NCBI GenBank assembly: GCA_965214095.1
Contig: OZ243938.1
Coordinates: 1,152,001-1,216,000, forward strand
DNA from: Candidatus Poribacteria bacterium
GTDB lineage: Bacteria > Poribacteria > WGA-4E > WGA-3G
Direction of reading: 5' to 3'
DNA: 64,000 nt
Shown here: positions 18,655 to 59,547 of the stretch, piece by piece
How the letters are laid out: every line of letters begins with the position of its first letter
Numbering within the stretch: position 1 is the first letter of the stretch
Notes under the pieces: generated by a model
The model's database searches: none
What the model was told of the DNA's origin: nothing
The model's input: only the letters and a program-made list of their open reading frames with translations
Made by a program: the position numbers and the translations under genes

Positions 18655-18788
18655 TAGTAAAAACCATAATTATTTACACATTACGGTAGGTTCGGTTCCT
18701 AACCGAACCGGTGTATGTTCGGTGACGTAGATGCGGTTAGGAAACCGCATTTACCGGGAATGTGTGCATATTTCTTGATTTCACTATA
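18655..18788. repeat. Family B element (TAG-ended shell with REP doublet)
   Basis: AAAACCATAATTATTTACACA..GGTAGGTTCGGTTCCTAACCGAACC..GATGCGGTTAGGAAACCGCAT..GATTTCACTATA; near-identical copies at 41.7 kb and 54.2-55.8 kb. Confidence 0.8.
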
Positions 18789-41698: not shown

Positions 41699-41818
41699 AA
41701 TTATTTACACACTACGGTAGGTTCGGTTTCCTAACCGAACCGGTGTTTGTTCAGTCTCATAGATGCGGTTAGGAAACCGCATCTACCGAGGAGTGGCACA
41801 TGTTTTTACATTCACTAC
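41699..41818. repeat. Family B element (empty-site allele of the IS target)
   Basis: GGTAG-GTTCGGTTTCCTAACCGAAC-CGGTG..GATGCGGTTAGGAAACCGCATCTAC..TTCACTA. Confidence 0.8.
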
Positions 41819-52683: not shown

Positions 52684-52846
52684 TAGAAAAATAGTATACC
52701 AAAATTTATGCAAAATTACAAAAGAATTTGCATTGTCCAATAATTCGGATCCATTTTATTTCGCTACATTACTTTGTGGTATGCTTTCATTTATTTCTTT
52801 GTATTATTTGATTTTAAGTGTAGTTATCAGATATACTCTAAATAGA

Positions 52847-54169
52847 ATGGATACCATTATGCAAAAACCTGACCACATCAACAAACAAATATTCCAACTC
52901 GCCATCCCAAATATCATAAGCAACTTCTCCATTCCACTTCTCGGTGCAGTAGATACAGCTTTAATGGGACGTATGGAGACTGATCATTATCTTGGTGCAG
53001 TAGGCATCGGTGGTGTTATTTTTAGTTTCATTTACTGGGGTTTCGGTTTCATCAGAATGGCATCCACAGGTTTGACAGCACAAGCATACGGAGAAAATGA
53101 TAACGAAGAATGTGGTCTTCTCCTGCAACGGTGCTTTTCAATCGGTGTCATCTGCAGCATCCTGTTATTGATGTTTCAGTGGGTGCTGGCAGATGTTAGT
53201 TTTCTTCTCATCGGAACAAGTCCAGAAGTAGAAAAACTTGCCCGAACCTATTTCCATATCCGTATCTATGCAGCACCTGCAACACTTTGTCTTCATGCAT
53301 TCCACGGCATTTTTCTCGGATTACAAAATGCCAAATATCCGATGATATTGACAATTCTCGTCAATATCATCAATATCGTGTTGAACATTGTTTTTGTGAT
53401 GCAGCTTGGCATGAAGGTGGAAGGTGTAGCATTAGCAACCGTCATCGCGCAATATGGTGGTCTGATATTTGCAATTGCGTTCTTTTTCCATCGCTACCGA
53501 AATCTATTCACCACATGGAATTTCAAAACAATCCTCTCCTACTCAAAACTTAGACGTTTCTTAAGCATAAGTGGAGACATTTTTATCCGCACGCTCTGTC
53601 TTGTTTTCAGTTTCTCCTTCTTCACCGCTATGTCAGCTGGAATAAGCGATACAATCTTAGCAATCAATACTATTCTCCTTCAATATATCAACCTAATGTC
53701 TTATGCCATTGATGGTTTCGCATTTGCTGCAGAGAGTATGATAGGCAAGTATATTGGCGCACGAGATATACAAAACCTAAAGAGAACAACCGGTCAGATT
53801 TTTCTATGGTCTTTTCTGTTCGGTGGGATTGTAATGCTAATCTTTCTTCTATTTGCGAACCAGCTCCTACACTTATTCACAGATAAACTCAATCTAATTG
53901 AAAATGCAAAACCGTATCTCGTATGGATCATCATTGCCCCGGTTGTGAACGTAGCTGCATATATTTGGGATGGTATATACCTTGGTGCAACTGCGACAAA
54001 ACCTTTGCGGAACACTATGATTGTTTCTATGCTACTATTTACCAGTGCAGTATATCTATTGCTACCTTATGGCAACCATGGACTTTGGGGAGCGTTAACG
54101 TTCCTATTAGTGATACGAGGCGTGGCATTGACATTCATAGCACCAAGACATCTATTCAGTCGAAATTGA
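52847..54169 (+). CDS. MATE family efflux transporter (DinF-like)
   Basis: LAIPNIISNFSIPLLGAVDTA, FGFIRMASTG, DGFAFAAE; start 52847 or 52859. Confidence 0.9.
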   Translation: MDTIMQKPDHINKQIFQLAIPNIISNFSIPLLGAVDTALMGRMETDHYLGAVGIGGVIFSFIYWGFGFIRMASTGLTAQAYGENDNEECGLLLQRCFSIGVICSILLLMFQWVLADVSFLLIGTSPEVEKLARTYFHIRIYAAPATLCLHAFHGIFLGLQNAKYPMILTILVNIINIVLNIVFVMQLGMKVEGVALATVIAQYGGLIFAIAFFFHRYRNLFTTWNFKTILSYSKLRRFLSISGDIFIRTLCLVFSFSFFTAMSAGISDTILAINTILLQYINLMSYAIDGFAFAAESMIGKYIGARDIQNLKRTTGQIFLWSFLFGGIVMLIFLLFANQLLHLFTDKLNLIENAKPYLVWIIIAPVVNVAAYIWDGIYLGATATKPLRNTMIVSMLLFTSAVYLLLPYGNHGLWGALTFLLVIRGVALTFIAPRHLFSRN

Positions 54170-54255
54170 TTGATGAAACTATGCTGGTAGACACACTTTA
54201 TAGCAAAAACCATAATTATTTACACACTACGGTAGGTTCGGTTTCCTAACCGAAC

Positions 54256-55743
54256 CATAGGCGTCAATTTAAGGATGCACCAAGACCGATAAGTGTCAAC
54301 TTTTAATCAGAGGAAGTATAAATTATGAAATAAAACTTCTGTAAAAATGAAAACACCTCATATATAATGTAGATATAGATTTATTATGGTCTACAAAGAG
54401 GTGTTTCCTAATGAATACATTATCACAAGTTCCCAAAGAAATGCAACATATTCTTACAACTATAGCCAATGATGCAGCTCTCAATACAGGTTTTGTCAAA
54501 AGAAGTTGTAAACTCAACGGTAGTCGTTTTGCTCAAATACTCATTTGGACTTGGTTAGAAAACCCAGATGCCACCTATACACAACTTGCGCAAACCGCTG
54601 GTGTGCTGGGGATTTCAATCTCACGACAAGCCATTGAACAACGATTTACATCTGAAGCAGCAGAGACCCTGAAAGTTATCCTTGATGCTACTGCGTCCAA
54701 GGTTATTTCTGCCGACCCGCAAACGCTTCCGCTCCTTGAAAAGTTCACTGGTGTCTATTTACAAGATAGTTCTTGGATTACACTCCCTGATGTGCTCCAC
54801 GAAACTTGGGAAGGTGGAAGCAAAAAGAATAAACCGAACACAGCTGCCGTGAAACTCCACCTGCGTTTTGATAGTGCCACAGGCACTTTTGAACACTTTG
54901 AACTGACCAATGGTATCACCGCTGATAGTGCTATTGAAAAGCAGATTGACATGCTACCCGCCGGCAGTTTGCGCCTCGCAGACCTCGGCTATTATTCACT
55001 TGATACCTTCAAAAGACTTTCCGATGCAAACGTCTTTTGGATATCACGCTACAAAGTCCAGTGTTTTCTCTATGATGAAACAGGTGACCCTTTTTGTTTG
55101 CTAAAATGGCTCAAGAAGGGTTCTAATAACTTCAAGGACAAACAAATCTTTATAGGTAAAAACAAGCGTCTCAAAGCACGATTAGTTGTTCAAAGACTTT
55201 CAGAAACAGAAACCCAACAGCGTATTAAGGAGATAAAACATCGTGCAAAGCGGAAGTATACGAAACCTTCACCCAAACGACTTCAGCTCGCAAGATGGAA
55301 TATCTACATTACTAATATAAAAGTAGACCATCTGACTGCTGAACAGATTTGTGCTGTCGCACGCATCCGATGGCAGGTTGAGTTGATGTTCAAGTGCTTC
55401 AAAAGCATTGGAAAAGTTGATACCTCCCGTAGCGACAAGCCATATAGAATCTTATGTGAGTTATATGCAAAACTCATCGTCGCAATTATGCGGCACTGGA
55501 TCATGTTAAGGGTCGGTTGGCGATGTCTAAAACATAGTCTAACAAAAACAGCAGAACTTATTAGCACCTTCGCACGCACACTTGCAATAGGTTTCCGCAA
55601 GTCTATAATGTCTTTTCGGCAAACTTTTGATGAAATAAAACACGCTTTCCAAAATGGGTGCTACATTGAGAGACGTGCTAATAGAGACACAACATTAGAA
55701 CACCTTGAAAATGCAGCAAAAAATCACTAAATTGACGCCTATG
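54256..55743 (+). mobile_element. IS4-family (IS231-like) insertion sequence, 1488 bp
   Basis: Perfect 16-bp TIRs CATAGGCGTCAATTTA; flanking 20-bp direct repeat; transposase stop lies inside the right TIR. Confidence 0.92.
54411..55730 (+). CDS. IS4-family DDE transposase
   Basis: GFVKR..KL, QDSS, DLGYY, RWQVELMFK. Confidence 0.93.
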   Translation: MNTLSQVPKEMQHILTTIANDAALNTGFVKRSCKLNGSRFAQILIWTWLENPDATYTQLAQTAGVLGISISRQAIEQRFTSEAAETLKVILDATASKVISADPQTLPLLEKFTGVYLQDSSWITLPDVLHETWEGGSKKNKPNTAAVKLHLRFDSATGTFEHFELTNGITADSAIEKQIDMLPAGSLRLADLGYYSLDTFKRLSDANVFWISRYKVQCFLYDETGDPFCLLKWLKKGSNNFKDKQIFIGKNKRLKARLVVQRLSETETQQRIKEIKHRAKRKYTKPSPKRLQLARWNIYITNIKVDHLTAEQICAVARIRWQVELMFKCFKSIGKVDTSRSDKPYRILCELYAKLIVAIMRHWIMLRVGWRCLKHSLTKTAELISTFARTLAIGFRKSIMSFRQTFDEIKHAFQNGCYIERRANRDTTLEHLENAAKNH

Positions 55744-55875
55744 GTTCGGTTTCCTAACCGAACCGGTGTTTATTCAGTCACATAGATGTGGTTAGGTAAC
55801 CGAACCTACTGGGAGTGTGTACATATTTTTAGATTTCACTATAAAGCGCGCCTACACTTTTTACATGCATCATAC

Positions 55876-58800
55876 TTAGTTGGTCGGATCACAATCATCA
55901 TCTTCAAGATATGAAATTATTGTGGCAATACCAAGTATATCATCCGAAGTATTGTCATCAATTTCAGGATATGTCACGCCTTGTTCACTGGTACTCCAAG
56001 TTCCAGTATTGTGCACGGCATTACAAATTGTCTTGTAGATCGCCTTGCGTACCTCATCAGCTGTTGTATTCTTCAATGATACCTTTGTATTAGCGTGTGT
56101 GAACCCACTTTCCTCAGTATAAACTCCTTTCCAACTGTCTAAGCTATTAGAGACTGACAGTTCTTCTAAGACTGAACTCCATCCAGTCGAAGTCTGCTCA
56201 GAATCACCATCTTCAAATTTATAATAGTTGTCCACATAAATTGGATCCTCTCCATCGTATCCGTACCCACGTATGGCATAGACTTGGACTTGCAAGTGGT
56301 CAGAATCAAGTTTGATGGCATAATAAACTTCAAAGAACTCTTCCTTCTCTACATAGAATTCAAGCACTTCAATTTCTACCGTAATTGTGTCCGTTCCGCC
56401 ATTGTTATCCGTGACAGATACGGTAACGGTATAAGACGACTGAATGTCATAATCAAGAGTGGAATTGGTAGTCAACTGACCATTACTAGTATTAAAACTG
56501 AAGGAACTTGCATCAGTACCACTGATACTATATGCAAGCGTATCTTCGTCTTCATCTGTTGCTGACACAGCATGTCCAACGTTGGAACCTGACGCAGCAG
56601 ACTCAATAATAGCACGTAATGCCTTCTCACCTTCCGTGAACACTGGAGCATCATTAACATCGGTTATACTGACTGTTAGAAATGTTCCATTTTTACCACC
56701 TCTGCCATCAGAGACACTGACTGTAACAGAGTAGGAGGATTTCTCTTCGTGATTAAAAATTTCATTGGTTGTTATCTGTCCCGTGTTCATATCTATACTG
56801 AAGAACTCTACATCCGTCCCGGCAAGACTGTATTCAAGCGTATCATCATCTTCATCTGTCGCCTCTACTGGATCACCGACCAATGTACCAATTGCTAAAT
56901 TCTCTGCTACCGAACGTGATGAGAAAAATCCATCCGTGAAAATAGGTTTATCGTTCTCATCTGACACACTGATTGAGACCGCTATTTCGTCTGTGCCACC
57001 ATTGTTATCGGTGACAGTTACCGATACAGAATAACTATCCTTGACCTCGTAATTAAATTTCGCTTTTGTTGTTATCTGTCCAGATGAGTCATTAATATTA
57101 AAGGAATCCGCATCTGTCCCCATAAGATCGTATTCAAGCGTATCTTCATCTTCATCTGTTGCCTCTACTGGATCGCCTACCACTGTCCCAGGAGACAAAT
57201 TCTCTGCTACTGAACGATTCGTTCCTGTTCCCTCTGTGAATATGGGCTCATCATTCACATCACTAACATTGATTGTAACTGCTATTTCGTCTGTGCCACC
57301 ATTGTTATCAGTAACAGTAACTTCAACCGAATAAGTGCTTTTGACTTCATGATCTAAAATAGCAGTGGTTGTTATCTGTCCAGATGAGGCATTGATATTA
57401 AAGGAAGCAGCATCGGTACCTTCAAGATCGTATTCAGGTGTATCCCCATCTTCATCTGTTGCTAAGACCGGTGTGCCTACGACTGCTCCAGATGGCAAGT
57501 TCTCTGCTACGGAACGGGATGTGGAAGCTCCCTCTGTGAATATCGGAGCATCATTCTCATCAGTGACATTGATAGTAACCGCTATTTCGTCTGTACCACC
57601 TTTGTTGTCAGAAACAACAATCGATACGGAATAAGAGTCTGTGTCTTCATAGTTTAGAGGAGCACTTGTCTTTAACTGACCAGAACTACTATCAATACCG
57701 AAGGAACTTGCATCTGTACCTACAAGTGCATATTCAAGTGTGTCATCGTTTTCATCTGTTGCAGATACAGGATCGCCAATCGAACTATTAGCAAGAGTAT
57801 TCTCTGCTATAGAACGTGTCGTACTCTCTCCTTCTGTAAATTCAGGTGCTTCATTGTCATCAGTGACATTGATCGTAACAGCTATTTCGTCTGTACCATC
57901 TTTGTCATCAGACACGGAGACCAATACAGAATAACTGTTCTTGGTTTCATAGTCTATTGGATCCTTCGTCCTTATCTGCCCCGAACTGCTATCAATACTG
58001 AAGGAACTCGCATCCGTGCCACCGAGAGTGTATTCAAGCGTTTCTCCATCATCATCTGTTGCGGTTACTGGGAGACCAATGGCAACATTAGACGGAGTAT
58101 GCTCTAATACATACCGTATCGTAGATTTACCCTCTGTGAAAACAGGAAGATTATTACATAACGGGATCAACTCAGGAGATAACTTAATTACGGCATCAAC
58201 GACTTCCCCGCCGGTGGATGTAGTTGGGCTAGTTGGAAAGTACTTTGAAACTACTATATCTGAGGTGGTTAAGCCACACCACCGTTTGAAATCGTCGACC
58301 TTAATTGAAATTGTAGTATCGGAGTCATCAAGCTCTGATGGCACTTCACACCACACAGAAAGACCCCACAGGTTCCATTTGTCACCTCTGAAAACTGAAA
58401 AACTGTCCTTTCGTGGATGTACTATATTGCCATCGATATTACATTGAATATCTATGAAAACACCGGGTTGGTTGAGTATCGGTTGGAACGCCATTATTCT
58501 CGGTCCGACCGTCACCTGAAGTTTAACAGTGTTTCCATCAAACACTACGTCATAAATATCCTTATCACCATCTTCAATAATTTTCGGAGGAGTATTTGGA
58601 TCAGTACCATCTTCATTTGGCGTGTTATCACCGTTAGTTGTATCACCGTTAGTTGTATCATCATTTGGCGTGTTATTACCGTCAGTTATTTCACCATTTG
58701 GTGTGTTATTACCGTTAGTTGTATCATCATTCGGCGTGTTATTACCGTCAGTTGTATCACCATTTGGTGTGTTATTACCGTTAGTTGTATCACCATTCGG

Positions 58801-59547
58801 CGTGTTATTTCCGTCAGTTGTATCACCATTTGGTGTGTTATTACCGTTTGGAGTTTCACTTTTTGGTGTGTTATTACCGTCAGTTGTATCACCATTTGGT
58901 GTGTTATTACCGTTTGGAGTTTCACTTTTTGGTGTGTTATTACCGTCAGTTGTATCACCATTTGGTGTGTTATTACCGTTTGGAGTTTCACCATTTAGCG
59001 TATCATCATCCTTGGGTGTAGATACATCATCCGTTTTTGTATCATCTTCAGATTTTATGTCACCTATAGGTGTAGATATAAAAGGCACATCAGTGTCATT
59101 TTCTGGTCGCGGAGCGTCTGAAATAAAGTCAGTCGTTTCATCTACTATATCTTTGATTGGCACATCAATAATGTCGCCAGTTTGTACATATTTCTTGATC
59201 CGTTCAATGATAGAAATAACAATCTCTTCAATATCCACCTCTTTGTTATTATCAATATATCGCGTTTCTATCTGTGTAACTATCTTTTCTACTGGTACTT
59301 CCGTGATGACTTTCTGGGTGACGATACGTTCTATAATCCTTGTGACAACATCCTCAATACGCACCGTTCTTGTTGTTTCATCAACATAGGCACACATAGA
59401 AGGCACGCCTAAGACTTTGTAACAACGAACCGTAACTGTACTAACTTCATCAGAATTGACAACTATAACCCGTTGATTTTCAAACTGTTCACAACCAAAT
59501 ATGATAATTAGACTTAGCAGAATGATACTAATATATCTTTTGAGCAT
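55876..59547 (-). CDS. Cadherin-repeat surface lipoprotein
   Basis: Lipobox IFGC; V/E/I-rich N-module; N/T/D/G/P repeat linker; six N..P.FT(E/D)G..ATD.D.D.L.Y cadherin-like domains. Confidence 0.9.
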   Translation of the reverse strand: MLKRYISIILLSLIIIFGCEQFENQRVIVVNSDEVSTVTVRCYKVLGVPSMCAYVDETTRTVRIEDVVTRIIERIVTQKVITEVPVEKIVTQIETRYIDNNKEVDIEEIVISIIERIKKYVQTGDIIDVPIKDIVDETTDFISDAPRPENDTDVPFISTPIGDIKSEDDTKTDDVSTPKDDDTLNGETPNGNNTPNGDTTDGNNTPKSETPNGNNTPNGDTTDGNNTPKSETPNGNNTPNGDTTDGNNTPNGDTTNGNNTPNGDTTDGNNTPNDDTTNGNNTPNGEITDGNNTPNDDTTNGDTTNGDNTPNEDGTDPNTPPKIIEDGDKDIYDVVFDGNTVKLQVTVGPRIMAFQPILNQPGVFIDIQCNIDGNIVHPRKDSFSVFRGDKWNLWGLSVWCEVPSELDDSDTTISIKVDDFKRWCGLTTSDIVVSKYFPTSPTTSTGGEVVDAVIKLSPELIPLCNNLPVFTEGKSTIRYVLEHTPSNVAIGLPVTATDDDGETLEYTLGGTDASSFSIDSSSGQIRTKDPIDYETKNSYSVLVSVSDDKDGTDEIAVTINVTDDNEAPEFTEGESTTRSIAENTLANSSIGDPVSATDENDDTLEYALVGTDASSFGIDSSSGQLKTSAPLNYEDTDSYSVSIVVSDNKGGTDEIAVTINVTDENDAPIFTEGASTSRSVAENLPSGAVVGTPVLATDEDGDTPEYDLEGTDAASFNINASSGQITTTAILDHEVKSTYSVEVTVTDNNGGTDEIAVTINVSDVNDEPIFTEGTGTNRSVAENLSPGTVVGDPVEATDEDEDTLEYDLMGTDADSFNINDSSGQITTKAKFNYEVKDSYSVSVTVTDNNGGTDEIAVSISVSDENDKPIFTDGFFSSRSVAENLAIGTLVGDPVEATDEDDDTLEYSLAGTDVEFFSIDMNTGQITTNEIFNHEEKSSYSVTVSVSDGRGGKNGTFLTVSITDVNDAPVFTEGEKALRAIIESAASGSNVGHAVSATDEDEDTLAYSISGTDASSFSFNTSNGQLTTNSTLDYDIQSSYTVTVSVTDNNGGTDTITVEIEVLEFYVEKEEFFEVYYAIKLDSDHLQVQVYAIRGYGYDGEDPIYVDNYYKFEDGDSEQTSTGWSSVLEELSVSNSLDSWKGVYTEESGFTHANTKVSLKNTTADEVRKAIYKTICNAVHNTGTWSTSEQGVTYPEIDDNTSDDILGIATIISYLEDDDCDPTN
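58640..58985 (-). repeat. Coding 33-bp tandem repeat (about 10 units)
   Basis: GNNTP(NGDTTD/KSETPN/NDDTTN) units with partial 66-bp higher-order periodicity. Confidence 0.85.

Follow-up and report, generated by a model that had tools for sequence, protein, structure and literature searches.

What sets the length of the target duplication when an insertion sequence (IS) lands in a short palindrome? The question is raised by a locus in a window of 64,000 nucleotides, the whole stretch of DNA analyzed here, on the 5.2-Mb near-closed main contig (C1) of a Candidatus Poribacteria genome, a sponge symbiont with a guanine-cytosine (GC) content of 41%. At this locus, an IS of the IS4 family sits between two complete copies of a 20-bp hairpin of the repetitive extragenic palindromic (REP) type. 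A first-pass annotation had proposed that a REP cruciform may extrude and be attacked at its base by the transposase, in which case the duplication length would depend on the structure of the target. We found duplications of about 20 bp also at targets that are not palindromes. [quoted passage not shown] The features of the locus and of the empty sites in the window are as follows.

54191..54235 (+): left arm of the REP doublet ("family B") with the GGTAG head at its end (54231-54235); the empty site at 41.7 kb has the same arm.
54236..54255 (+): left copy of the 20-bp target duplication, with an 8-bp stem and a 4-nt loop, from sequence and fold.
54256..55743 (+): the IS4-family insertion sequence, 1488 bp long, whose ends are of the IS231 type (CAT...ATG), delimited by 13 copies.
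54256..54271 (+): left terminal inverted repeat, CATAGGCGTCAATTTA, 16 bp, in agreement with the consensus of IS231 ends, CAT-------AA--TAA.
54289..54299 (+): second copy of the repeat core, ATAAGTGTCAA, subterminal and present at the left end only, 33 bp inside (IS position 34).
54411..55730 (+): transposase open reading frame (ORF), 439 amino acids (aa), assigned by PF01609, NF033592, conserved residues and a predicted fold that resembles Tn5.
55728..55743 (-): right terminal inverted repeat, TAAATTGACGCCTATG, the reverse complement of the left one, a perfect 16-bp match.
55744..55763 (+): right copy of the 20-bp target duplication, from sequence.
55764..55809 (+): rest of the REP doublet, with a spacer of 24 bp, a second hairpin that is inverted and degenerate (55788-55805) and CTAC, identified by comparison with the empty doublet at 41716-41787.
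41716..41787 (+): empty REP doublet, with GGTAG, hairpin 41721-41740, spacer, inverted hairpin 41763-41782 and CTACC, from sequence and fold.
18685..18708 (+): empty site of the same family, with a single 19-bp hairpin variant and a 3-nt loop, from sequence.

The duplicated 20-mer, GTTCGGTTTCCTAACCGAAC, is the hairpin GTTCGGTT-TCCT-AACCGAAC. It is identical on both sides of the IS and directly adjoins the inverted repeats, and the outer flanks of the occupied site are GGTAG (left) and CGGTG (right). Folded as a single strand, the 20-mer gives a hairpin with 8 bp in the stem and 4 nt in the loop (-7 kcal/mol, z -4.0). With up to 3 mismatches, it is found at three places in the window (41721, 54236 and 55744), against a shuffled expectation of 0.00. 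The first-pass annotation had described the whole hairpin on both sides, at 54236-54255 and 55744-55763, and this proved correct in every detail. It had also named two sites without the IS, at 41.7 and 18.7 kb, each with a single hairpin. The first indeed reads GGTAG-hairpin-CGGTG, and the second carries the 19-bp variant. The left REP arm together with its hairpin (54191..54255) is repeated many times in the genome and in relatives.

A 513-nt contig from a divergent relative (public run X2) joins position 54159 to 55841 with 37 other letters between them. Therefore, that relative has neither the REP doublet nor the IS at this locus. The public-run data are short-read contigs (Logan) that end at repeats, and none spans an IS junction. 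The summed contig depth over the IS was about 13 times that of the flanks in runs X15 and X17, a depth that is not equal to copy number.

The genome contains 13 full-length copies of the IS, at 98.3 to 100% identity, and 6 of them are at 100%. The 439-aa frame is kept at the same offset in 11 of the 13. The remaining two, which are 1487 bp long, were shifted by one base in this test. A protein of 439 aa and 98% identity on the same contig suggests that they are intact as well. The 11 kept frames and the 6 fully identical copies point to recent activity of the IS. An exact 20-bp duplication flanks all 13 copies. Ten of them lie in exact register inside the hairpin GT(T/G)CGGTT-TCCT-AACCG(A/C)AC, nine in one orientation with respect to the loop and one in the other. 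Three lie at unrelated, non-palindromic 20-mers (C1:4200153, 4265783 and 4400707). The flanks of the 13 copies have only REP-type repeats of at most 170 bp in common, and so the copies represent 13 independent insertions.

Because repeats are hard to assemble and the short-read contigs do not bridge the junctions, we considered whether the matching flanks might be an assembly artefact or a product of recombination between copies. Exact duplications at 13 of 13 loci on a near-closed 5.2-Mb contig, and the same pattern in about 20 independently assembled genomes, led us to reject this idea. Non-matching flanks in 25 of 80 loci from relatives are what recombination is expected to leave behind, but recombination removes matching flanks and does not make them. 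We give the artefact almost no chance of being right. A second possibility is that the hairpins are extended terminal structures of the element itself and that there is no target duplication. The palindrome copies do extend the inverted repeat at 16 of 20 positions, and many IS and MITE ends adjoin hairpins. Yet the asymmetric loop is direct, not inverted, on the two sides, and empty sites with one hairpin exist. Three copies carry unrelated 20-mers instead; these three refute the idea, which we rejected as having next to no probability.

One of the non-palindromic insertions could be compared with its empty site. The target 20-mer of the copy at C1:4200153 is single-copy in 5 of 5 orthologous empty loci of relatives, in all of which the left and right flanks overlap by this 20-mer. 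It has no folding potential (0 kcal/mol). A 20-bp duplication at an unfoldable 20-mer with verified empty sites means that a hairpin is not needed for the 20-bp stagger.

To follow the duplication beyond this genome, we used a pattern scan of one genome per species, which gave 222 tblastn-confirmed stretches. We kept 80 loci, all from Poribacteria metagenome-assembled genome records (about 20 assemblies, 48 to 90% aa identity), and anchored the ends of the IS on the conserved core of the inverted repeat. The ends were not found by pattern in 6 loci, and 49 of the 80 have an exact duplication, which is 20 bp in 21 loci, 19 bp in 26 and 18 bp in 2. Where the stem of the target is 8 bp, hairpin and duplication agree in length in 25 of 25 targets: 20 bp in 14 with a 4-nt loop and 19 bp in 11 with a 3-nt loop. 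Both lengths occur within one IS lineage in one genome (loci L073-75 versus L077). Any one IS has fixed ends, and so the difference of 1 bp is a true one however the flanking G and C are assigned.

This agreement of lengths within one lineage, like the stability of the hairpin formed by the 20-mer, is in favor of cuts at the base of an extruded cruciform. A second REP type in the relatives, with a 7-bp stem (GTCGGGT...ACCCGAC) and an 11- to 14-nt loop, bears on the same proposal from two sides. The IS inserts on its dyad at 8 sites and duplicates GGT-loop-ACC, and the length follows the loop, 20 bp with a 14-nt loop and 19 bp with a 13-nt loop. However, a duplication of GGT-loop-ACC places the cuts 3 to 4 bp inside the 7-bp stem and not at its base. 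There are also 8 insertions at non-REP sites in relatives. These have 20-bp duplications in lineages of at least 70% identity (L016 and L020) and 19-bp duplications, each with one ambiguous extra base, in lineages of 50 to 55% identity. Counting the 3 of 13 copies in this genome, 2 elements from Chloroflexota and several MITEs (both described below), 19 to 20 bp are thus duplicated at many non-palindromic sites, one of which is unfoldable with a verified empty site. The proposal that structure sets the duplication length through the base of a cruciform is not supported by these comparisons, and we consider it improbable.

The flank tabulation called for in the first-pass annotation therefore spoke both ways. 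Its expectation of hairpin targets and of duplications as long as the hairpin was borne out in 10 of 13 copies and in 25 of 25 targets with an 8-bp stem in relatives, but 3 of the 13 and 8 relatives sit at non-REP sites. The opposite outcome that it named, duplications of about 11 bp at non-palindromic sites, was looked for in all copies of this genome; 3 of 13 are non-palindromic, but their duplications are 20 bp long. Because the same length is found at non-palindromic sites, including the verified empty site, the stagger of about 20 bp appears to be intrinsic to the transposase. The structure or sequence of a palindrome would then center the cuts, with an effect of about 1 bp on the length. 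A span of 19 to 21 bp corresponds to two turns of B-DNA, which would place the two scissile phosphates on one face of the duplex. No cruciform is needed for this, though one would be compatible with the palindromic sites.

We then asked what the IS prefers in a target. The genome has 377 strict REP hairpins and 510 sites within 2 substitutions of the consensus. Ten of 13 insertions in exact register into approximately 377 to 510 sites of a 5.2-Mb genome cannot be chance; the element prefers the hairpin, and on this point the first-pass interpretation is supported. We also assembled 16 non-REP targets, selected by hand from the IS copies of this genome, MITEs, relatives and the Chlorohelix element, a set that covers several lineages and is not phylogenetically independent. 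Of the 16, 12 begin with G, 14 end with C, and 14 have a complementary outermost pair. Dyad pairing amounts to 55 of 152 pairs compared with 39.8 +/- 5.2 after shuffling (12 of 5000 shuffles reach 55), and symmetry in the interior is weak. These patterns fit two half-sites, 5'-G(G/T)(G/T) on each strand (5'-GKK), at the edges of the duplication, with a spacing tolerance of about 1 bp. The REP palindromes satisfy the half-site pattern perfectly.

The transposase was assigned from sequence and predicted structure. The 439-aa ORF matches PF01609 (80.5 bits, E 1.9e-22) and, at 195.9 bits with the cut-off at 115, the NCBIfam IS4 model NF033592. Residues D119, D191 and E324 are invariant in 16 aligned sequences and align with the D, D and E of a Bacillus IS4 transposase; they are the putative catalytic residues. 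The spacers between them are 71 and 132 residues, within the D(60-110)D(100-150)E of the IS4 family. The C1 motif reads A317-x2-R320-x3-E324-x6-K331. Its Tyr is replaced by Ala317 here and by Leu in the Herpetosiphon relative, and the position is unconserved in the alignment of relatives; the Bacillus protein has Tyr. The IS ends, CATAGGCGTCAATTTAAGGA, fit the IS231 consensus CAT-------AA--TAA. Pfam match, IS4 model and ends thus agree with the earlier description of an IS231-like IS4-family element.

An AlphaFold model of the transposase (predicted local distance difference test, pLDDT, 77.2; predicted template modeling score, pTM, 0.70) had Tn5 transposase as its top five PDB structure matches, with E values from 8.8e-9 to 2.9e-7 and moderate template modeling (TM) scores of 0.42 to 0.46 for a predicted model. 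A sequence-profile search of the PDB found nothing relevant, the best hit being an ABC transporter at E 0.61. The link to Tn5 therefore comes from the predicted fold only.

The duplication length is where the element departs from its family. It is 20 bp in 13 of 13 copies and 18 to 20 bp in 49 relatives, outside the 7 to 13 bp of the IS4 family and the 10 to 12 bp of the IS231 subgroup. The transposase has about 28% aa identity to transposases on Bacillus plasmids, a comparison made with proteins annotated only as "IS4 family transposase". Many pairs in the IS231 subgroup exceed 50% identity and belong to the Bacillus cereus group; the close relatives of the present IS are all from Poribacteria.

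Long duplications are known from the IS1634/IS1549 group, for which direct repeats of 8 to 514 bp are listed in PMC2266710. A weak match to the IS1634 model NF033559 (29.2 bits) could be taken to place our element there. That score is far under the 100-bit cut-off of the model, compared with 195.9 bits for the IS4 model; the ends fit IS231; and the duplication length is fixed at 18 to 20 bp. We rejected membership in this group on the score and the fixed lengths, and regard it as very unlikely.

The nearest annotated plasmid relatives are a Herpetosiphon aurantiacus element (34.8% aa identity) and a Candidatus Chlorohelix element (33.8%). Their duplications are 19 to 21 bp and 20 bp, respectively, both at non-REP sites with G-rich/C-rich edges. 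Because these Chloroflexota elements also duplicate about 20 bp at 34 to 35% identity, this length appears to be a property of the clade that is older than its spread in Poribacteria. A search of the two plasmids for further copies found one partial extra copy only. On Clostridium plasmids used as outgroups, we found inverted repeats (CATAGCC...) but no matching flanks in the copies fetched. The outgroup copies on Bacillus plasmids were degenerate or had ends that the search did not resolve, and the IS231 figure of 10 to 12 bp is that of PMC2266710.

The hairpins themselves have the marks of REP and REPIN (REP doublet forming a hairpin) sequences: a short palindrome, a GTAG head, hundreds of copies and inverted doublets. 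A GTAG head is a hallmark of REP sequences. Of the 377 strict hairpins, 374 have a 4-nt loop. GGTAG directly precedes about 92% of 362 oriented hairpins, and 145 neighboring pairs lie less than 200 bp apart, mostly at the 65 to 68 bp of inverted doublets. We searched for a cognate REP-associated tyrosine transposase (RAYT). Five PF01797 (Y1) hits were found in the genome; none was established as a RAYT, and four of them are IS200/IS605-like units. These four units of about 1.8 kb share 98% identity (hits at C1:81623-81976, 2170036-2170389, 2385609-2385962 and 4230081-4230434). Each encodes a 138-aa Y1 transposase and a 420-aa TnpB-like ORF, and is of the IS200/IS605 type in appearance. No such hairpin lies beside three of them, and one variant lies beside the fourth. 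The fifth PF01797 match, at 2666075-2666299, is partial.

Many hairpins lie next to ends of the IS type. We scanned the genome outside the IS copies for the 16-bp inverted repeat, used the reversed genome as a control, and paired ends at 100 to 400 bp. At up to 2 mismatches, there were 137 sites compared with 7 in the control (189 compared with 44 at up to 3 mismatches). They form 45 paired elements plus many solo ends. Thirty-three of the 45 elements are 169 to 173 bp long, and 33 contain exactly two hairpins. The parts follow one another as inverted repeat, arm, GGTAG-hairpin, 46 bp, inverted hairpin-CTACC, arm, inverted repeat (for example, C1:1338913-1339083, 2057070-2057240 and 4972884-4973055). 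Eleven elements are flanked by exact 20-bp duplications and two by exact 19-bp duplications, and 25 of 45 have duplications with at most 3 mismatches at 19 or 20 bp. Seven targets are strict hairpins, several more are degenerate hairpins, and several are non-palindromic. With inverted repeats of the IS type, no transposase, many copies and the same duplication length, these elements have the properties of MITEs. The elements of about 171 bp are very probably moved in trans by the transposase of the IS. MITEs with IS ends, hairpins and 19- to 20-bp duplications are new here.

The family also inserts into itself. Hairpins within 110 bp of an IS-type inverted repeat number 156 of 377. At least two IS copies (443699 and 2355851) lie in a hairpin inside a MITE, and at least 9 of the 49 duplicated targets in relatives directly adjoin the end of another IS or MITE. 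At C1:2057225-2057399, there are four inverted-repeat-like ends with a 58-bp period, in tandem units of hairpin, repeat and arm. This array could have arisen by repeated insertion followed by deletion or by slippage. The family B doublet in the window has no IS-type inverted repeat beside it, so not every hairpin is MITE-borne. In a separate observation, the MITEs at C1:1492263, 3080288 and 4972884 have near-identical non-REP targets (GTGTATAGAAAAATGTGC..), which points to another small repeat family serving as a target.

We propose the following mechanism. The transpososome would join the two 3' ends of the IS to target phosphates 19 to 20 bp apart, approximately two helical turns compared with approximately one (7 to 13 bp), and gap repair would leave a 19- to 20-bp duplication whatever the type of site. 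Each half of the complex would prefer a short half-site at the edge of the duplication, so that the duplication tends to start with G and end with C, and the spacing of the half-sites would tolerate about 1 bp of variation. The subterminal copy of the repeat core at 54289-54299 may provide a second binding site for the transposase. A REP palindrome of 19 to 20 bp would present two perfect half-sites at the right spacing, and insertion would be centered on its dyad. The whole palindrome would then be regenerated on both sides of the IS. As the first-pass annotation had anticipated, insertion copies the REP: the whole hairpin is duplicated, and two intact hairpins result. The same transposase would move the MITEs of about 171 bp, most of which carry two palindromes, and the family would thereby spread its own landing sites and nest into itself. 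The chemistry is inferred from family membership, and the half-site reading and the mobilization of MITEs in trans are likewise drawn from patterns in the sequences.

Several points weigh against this reading. The half-site consensus is based on 16 non-independent sites that were picked as non-REP. At palindromic sites, the duplication is ambiguous by 1 to 2 bp, because a G precedes and a C follows the hairpin and the IS ends are C...G. The 22-bp alternative given in the first-pass annotation is valid as such an ambiguity, and the non-palindromic copies fix the duplication at 20 bp and the ends as CAT...ATG. The match of duplication to hairpin length in 25 of 25 targets is equally expected from a structure-guided cut. 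Twenty of the 45 MITEs have no clean duplication, and 25 of the 80 loci in relatives have no exact one, many of these lying between two different REP variants. Recombination between copies or decay would account for both. Three loci in relatives (L025, L032 and L078) have the same stem on both sides with the loop inverted on one (TCCT versus AGGA), as would result if copies lying in REPs of opposite orientation had undergone inversion or recombination. The two Chloroflexota duplications are from single copies each. Finally, the YREK signature is incomplete, and membership in the IS4 family in the sense of De Palmenaer et al. is not clean.

How does the element compare with known systems? Hallet and colleagues reportedly described in 1994 a target consensus for IS231A with a dyad-symmetric preference, which resembles that of the present IS. 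Like IS231A and other members of its subgroup, the element has a single DDE ORF, a length of about 1.5 kb, similar ends, and non-autonomous derivatives with the same ends (MIC231, in the reference list of PMC2266710). It differs from them in its duplication (19 to 20 compared with 10 to 12 bp), in its low identity of about 28%, in the replacement of Tyr by Ala/Leu, and in its hosts (Poribacteria/Chloroflexota compared with the Bacillus cereus group). In De Palmenaer et al. 2008 (PMC2266710), the IS4 family is defined by D(60-110)D(100-150)E, Y(2)R(3)E(6)K, a single ORF and a duplication of about one turn, with subgroup ranges of 7 to 13 bp, and the IS231 subgroup by ends CAT-------AA--TAA and direct repeats of 10 to 12 bp (Table 1). 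The same paper gives IS1634/IS1549 long variable direct repeats of 8 to 514 bp without an explanatory model. These elements resemble ours as IS4-related DDE transposons with duplications of more than one turn, but their lengths are variable, whereas ours are fixed at 18 to 20 bp. Tn5 (IS50) is the best predicted-fold match (1muh and 4dm0), and it also uses palindromic targets with G/C pairs at the duplication ends (discussion of PMC1525189). However, Tn5 makes 9-bp duplications, and its transposase has no detectable sequence similarity to the present one.

Targeting of REP sequences is known from other elements. The first-pass annotation had held that it is best described for IS110 and IS3 members. 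This is incomplete, since Tobes and Pareja 2006 (PMC1525189) include five IS families, among them IS4 with ISRm22. The copies of ISRm22 (IS4Sa subgroup, Sinorhizobium meliloti) all lie in REP palindromes, and the insertion point is on the palindrome axis, as in our element. However, its 6-bp duplication splits the REP, whereas the present IS duplicates the whole 19- to 20-bp palindrome and leaves it intact on both sides. IS1397/ISKpn1 and ISPsy8 (IS3) and IS621, ISPpu9/10 and ISPa11 (IS110) are also REP-specific and insert at a fixed position, but they belong to other transposase families with other chemistry, have 0- to 3-bp duplications and interrupt the REP (PMC1525189). Therefore, REP targeting by an IS4-type element is already known, and duplication of the whole palindrome is not described in the accessible text of PMC1525189. 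Our literature search returned no IS4-family element with a 19- to 20-bp duplication, no such nesting of REPs and MITEs, and nothing on IS elements of Poribacteria; an existing ISfinder entry is possible.

The IS and the REP doublet lie in the intergenic gap between a membrane-protein gene (52733-54169) and a convergent ORF of 1223 aa. The latter (55876-59547, minus strand), directly downstream of the IS, encodes many cadherin-like repeats and a low-complexity tract rich in Asn, Gly, Thr, Pro and Asp. A second contig of the assembly, C2, is 32,066 bp long with 64% GC compared with 41% in the main contig; foreign DNA or contamination is possible.

The duplication length is treated as nearly fixed for a transposase family, since it follows from how the two active sites are arranged on the target. 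About one helical turn is part of the definition of the IS4 family, and this clade breaks that constant. We describe a branch of the IS4 family that is IS231-like, duplicates two turns of target, lacks the Tyr of YREK, inserts on the dyad with preservation of the target, and is accompanied by MITEs that carry the target. The clade keeps IS231-type ends and a Tn5-like predicted fold yet would cut two turns apart, so that enzymes making duplications of about 11 and about 20 bp offer a natural comparison on the stagger in DDE transpososomes. On the practical side, IS annotation tools that expect at most 13 bp for IS4 will misplace the ends of these elements.

Because the duplication spans the whole preferred target, each insertion adds a copy of the target where other elements would disrupt it. 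Such gains, along with the targets carried by MITEs, would account for the nested and tandem arrays. It is possible, though we hold this only tentatively, that the REP is here at least in part a landing-pad module made and spread by the transposon family and not a host repeat. Each insertion would regenerate two intact pads, and each MITE of about 171 bp would bring two more. If so, the family would make its own harmless intergenic safe havens, where arrays of IS, pad and IS pile up, and the two-turn stagger would be an adaptation for a target-preserving mode of insertion undescribed for DDE transposons. Part of the repeat load of Poribacteria genomes may stem from such target-multiplying insertions.

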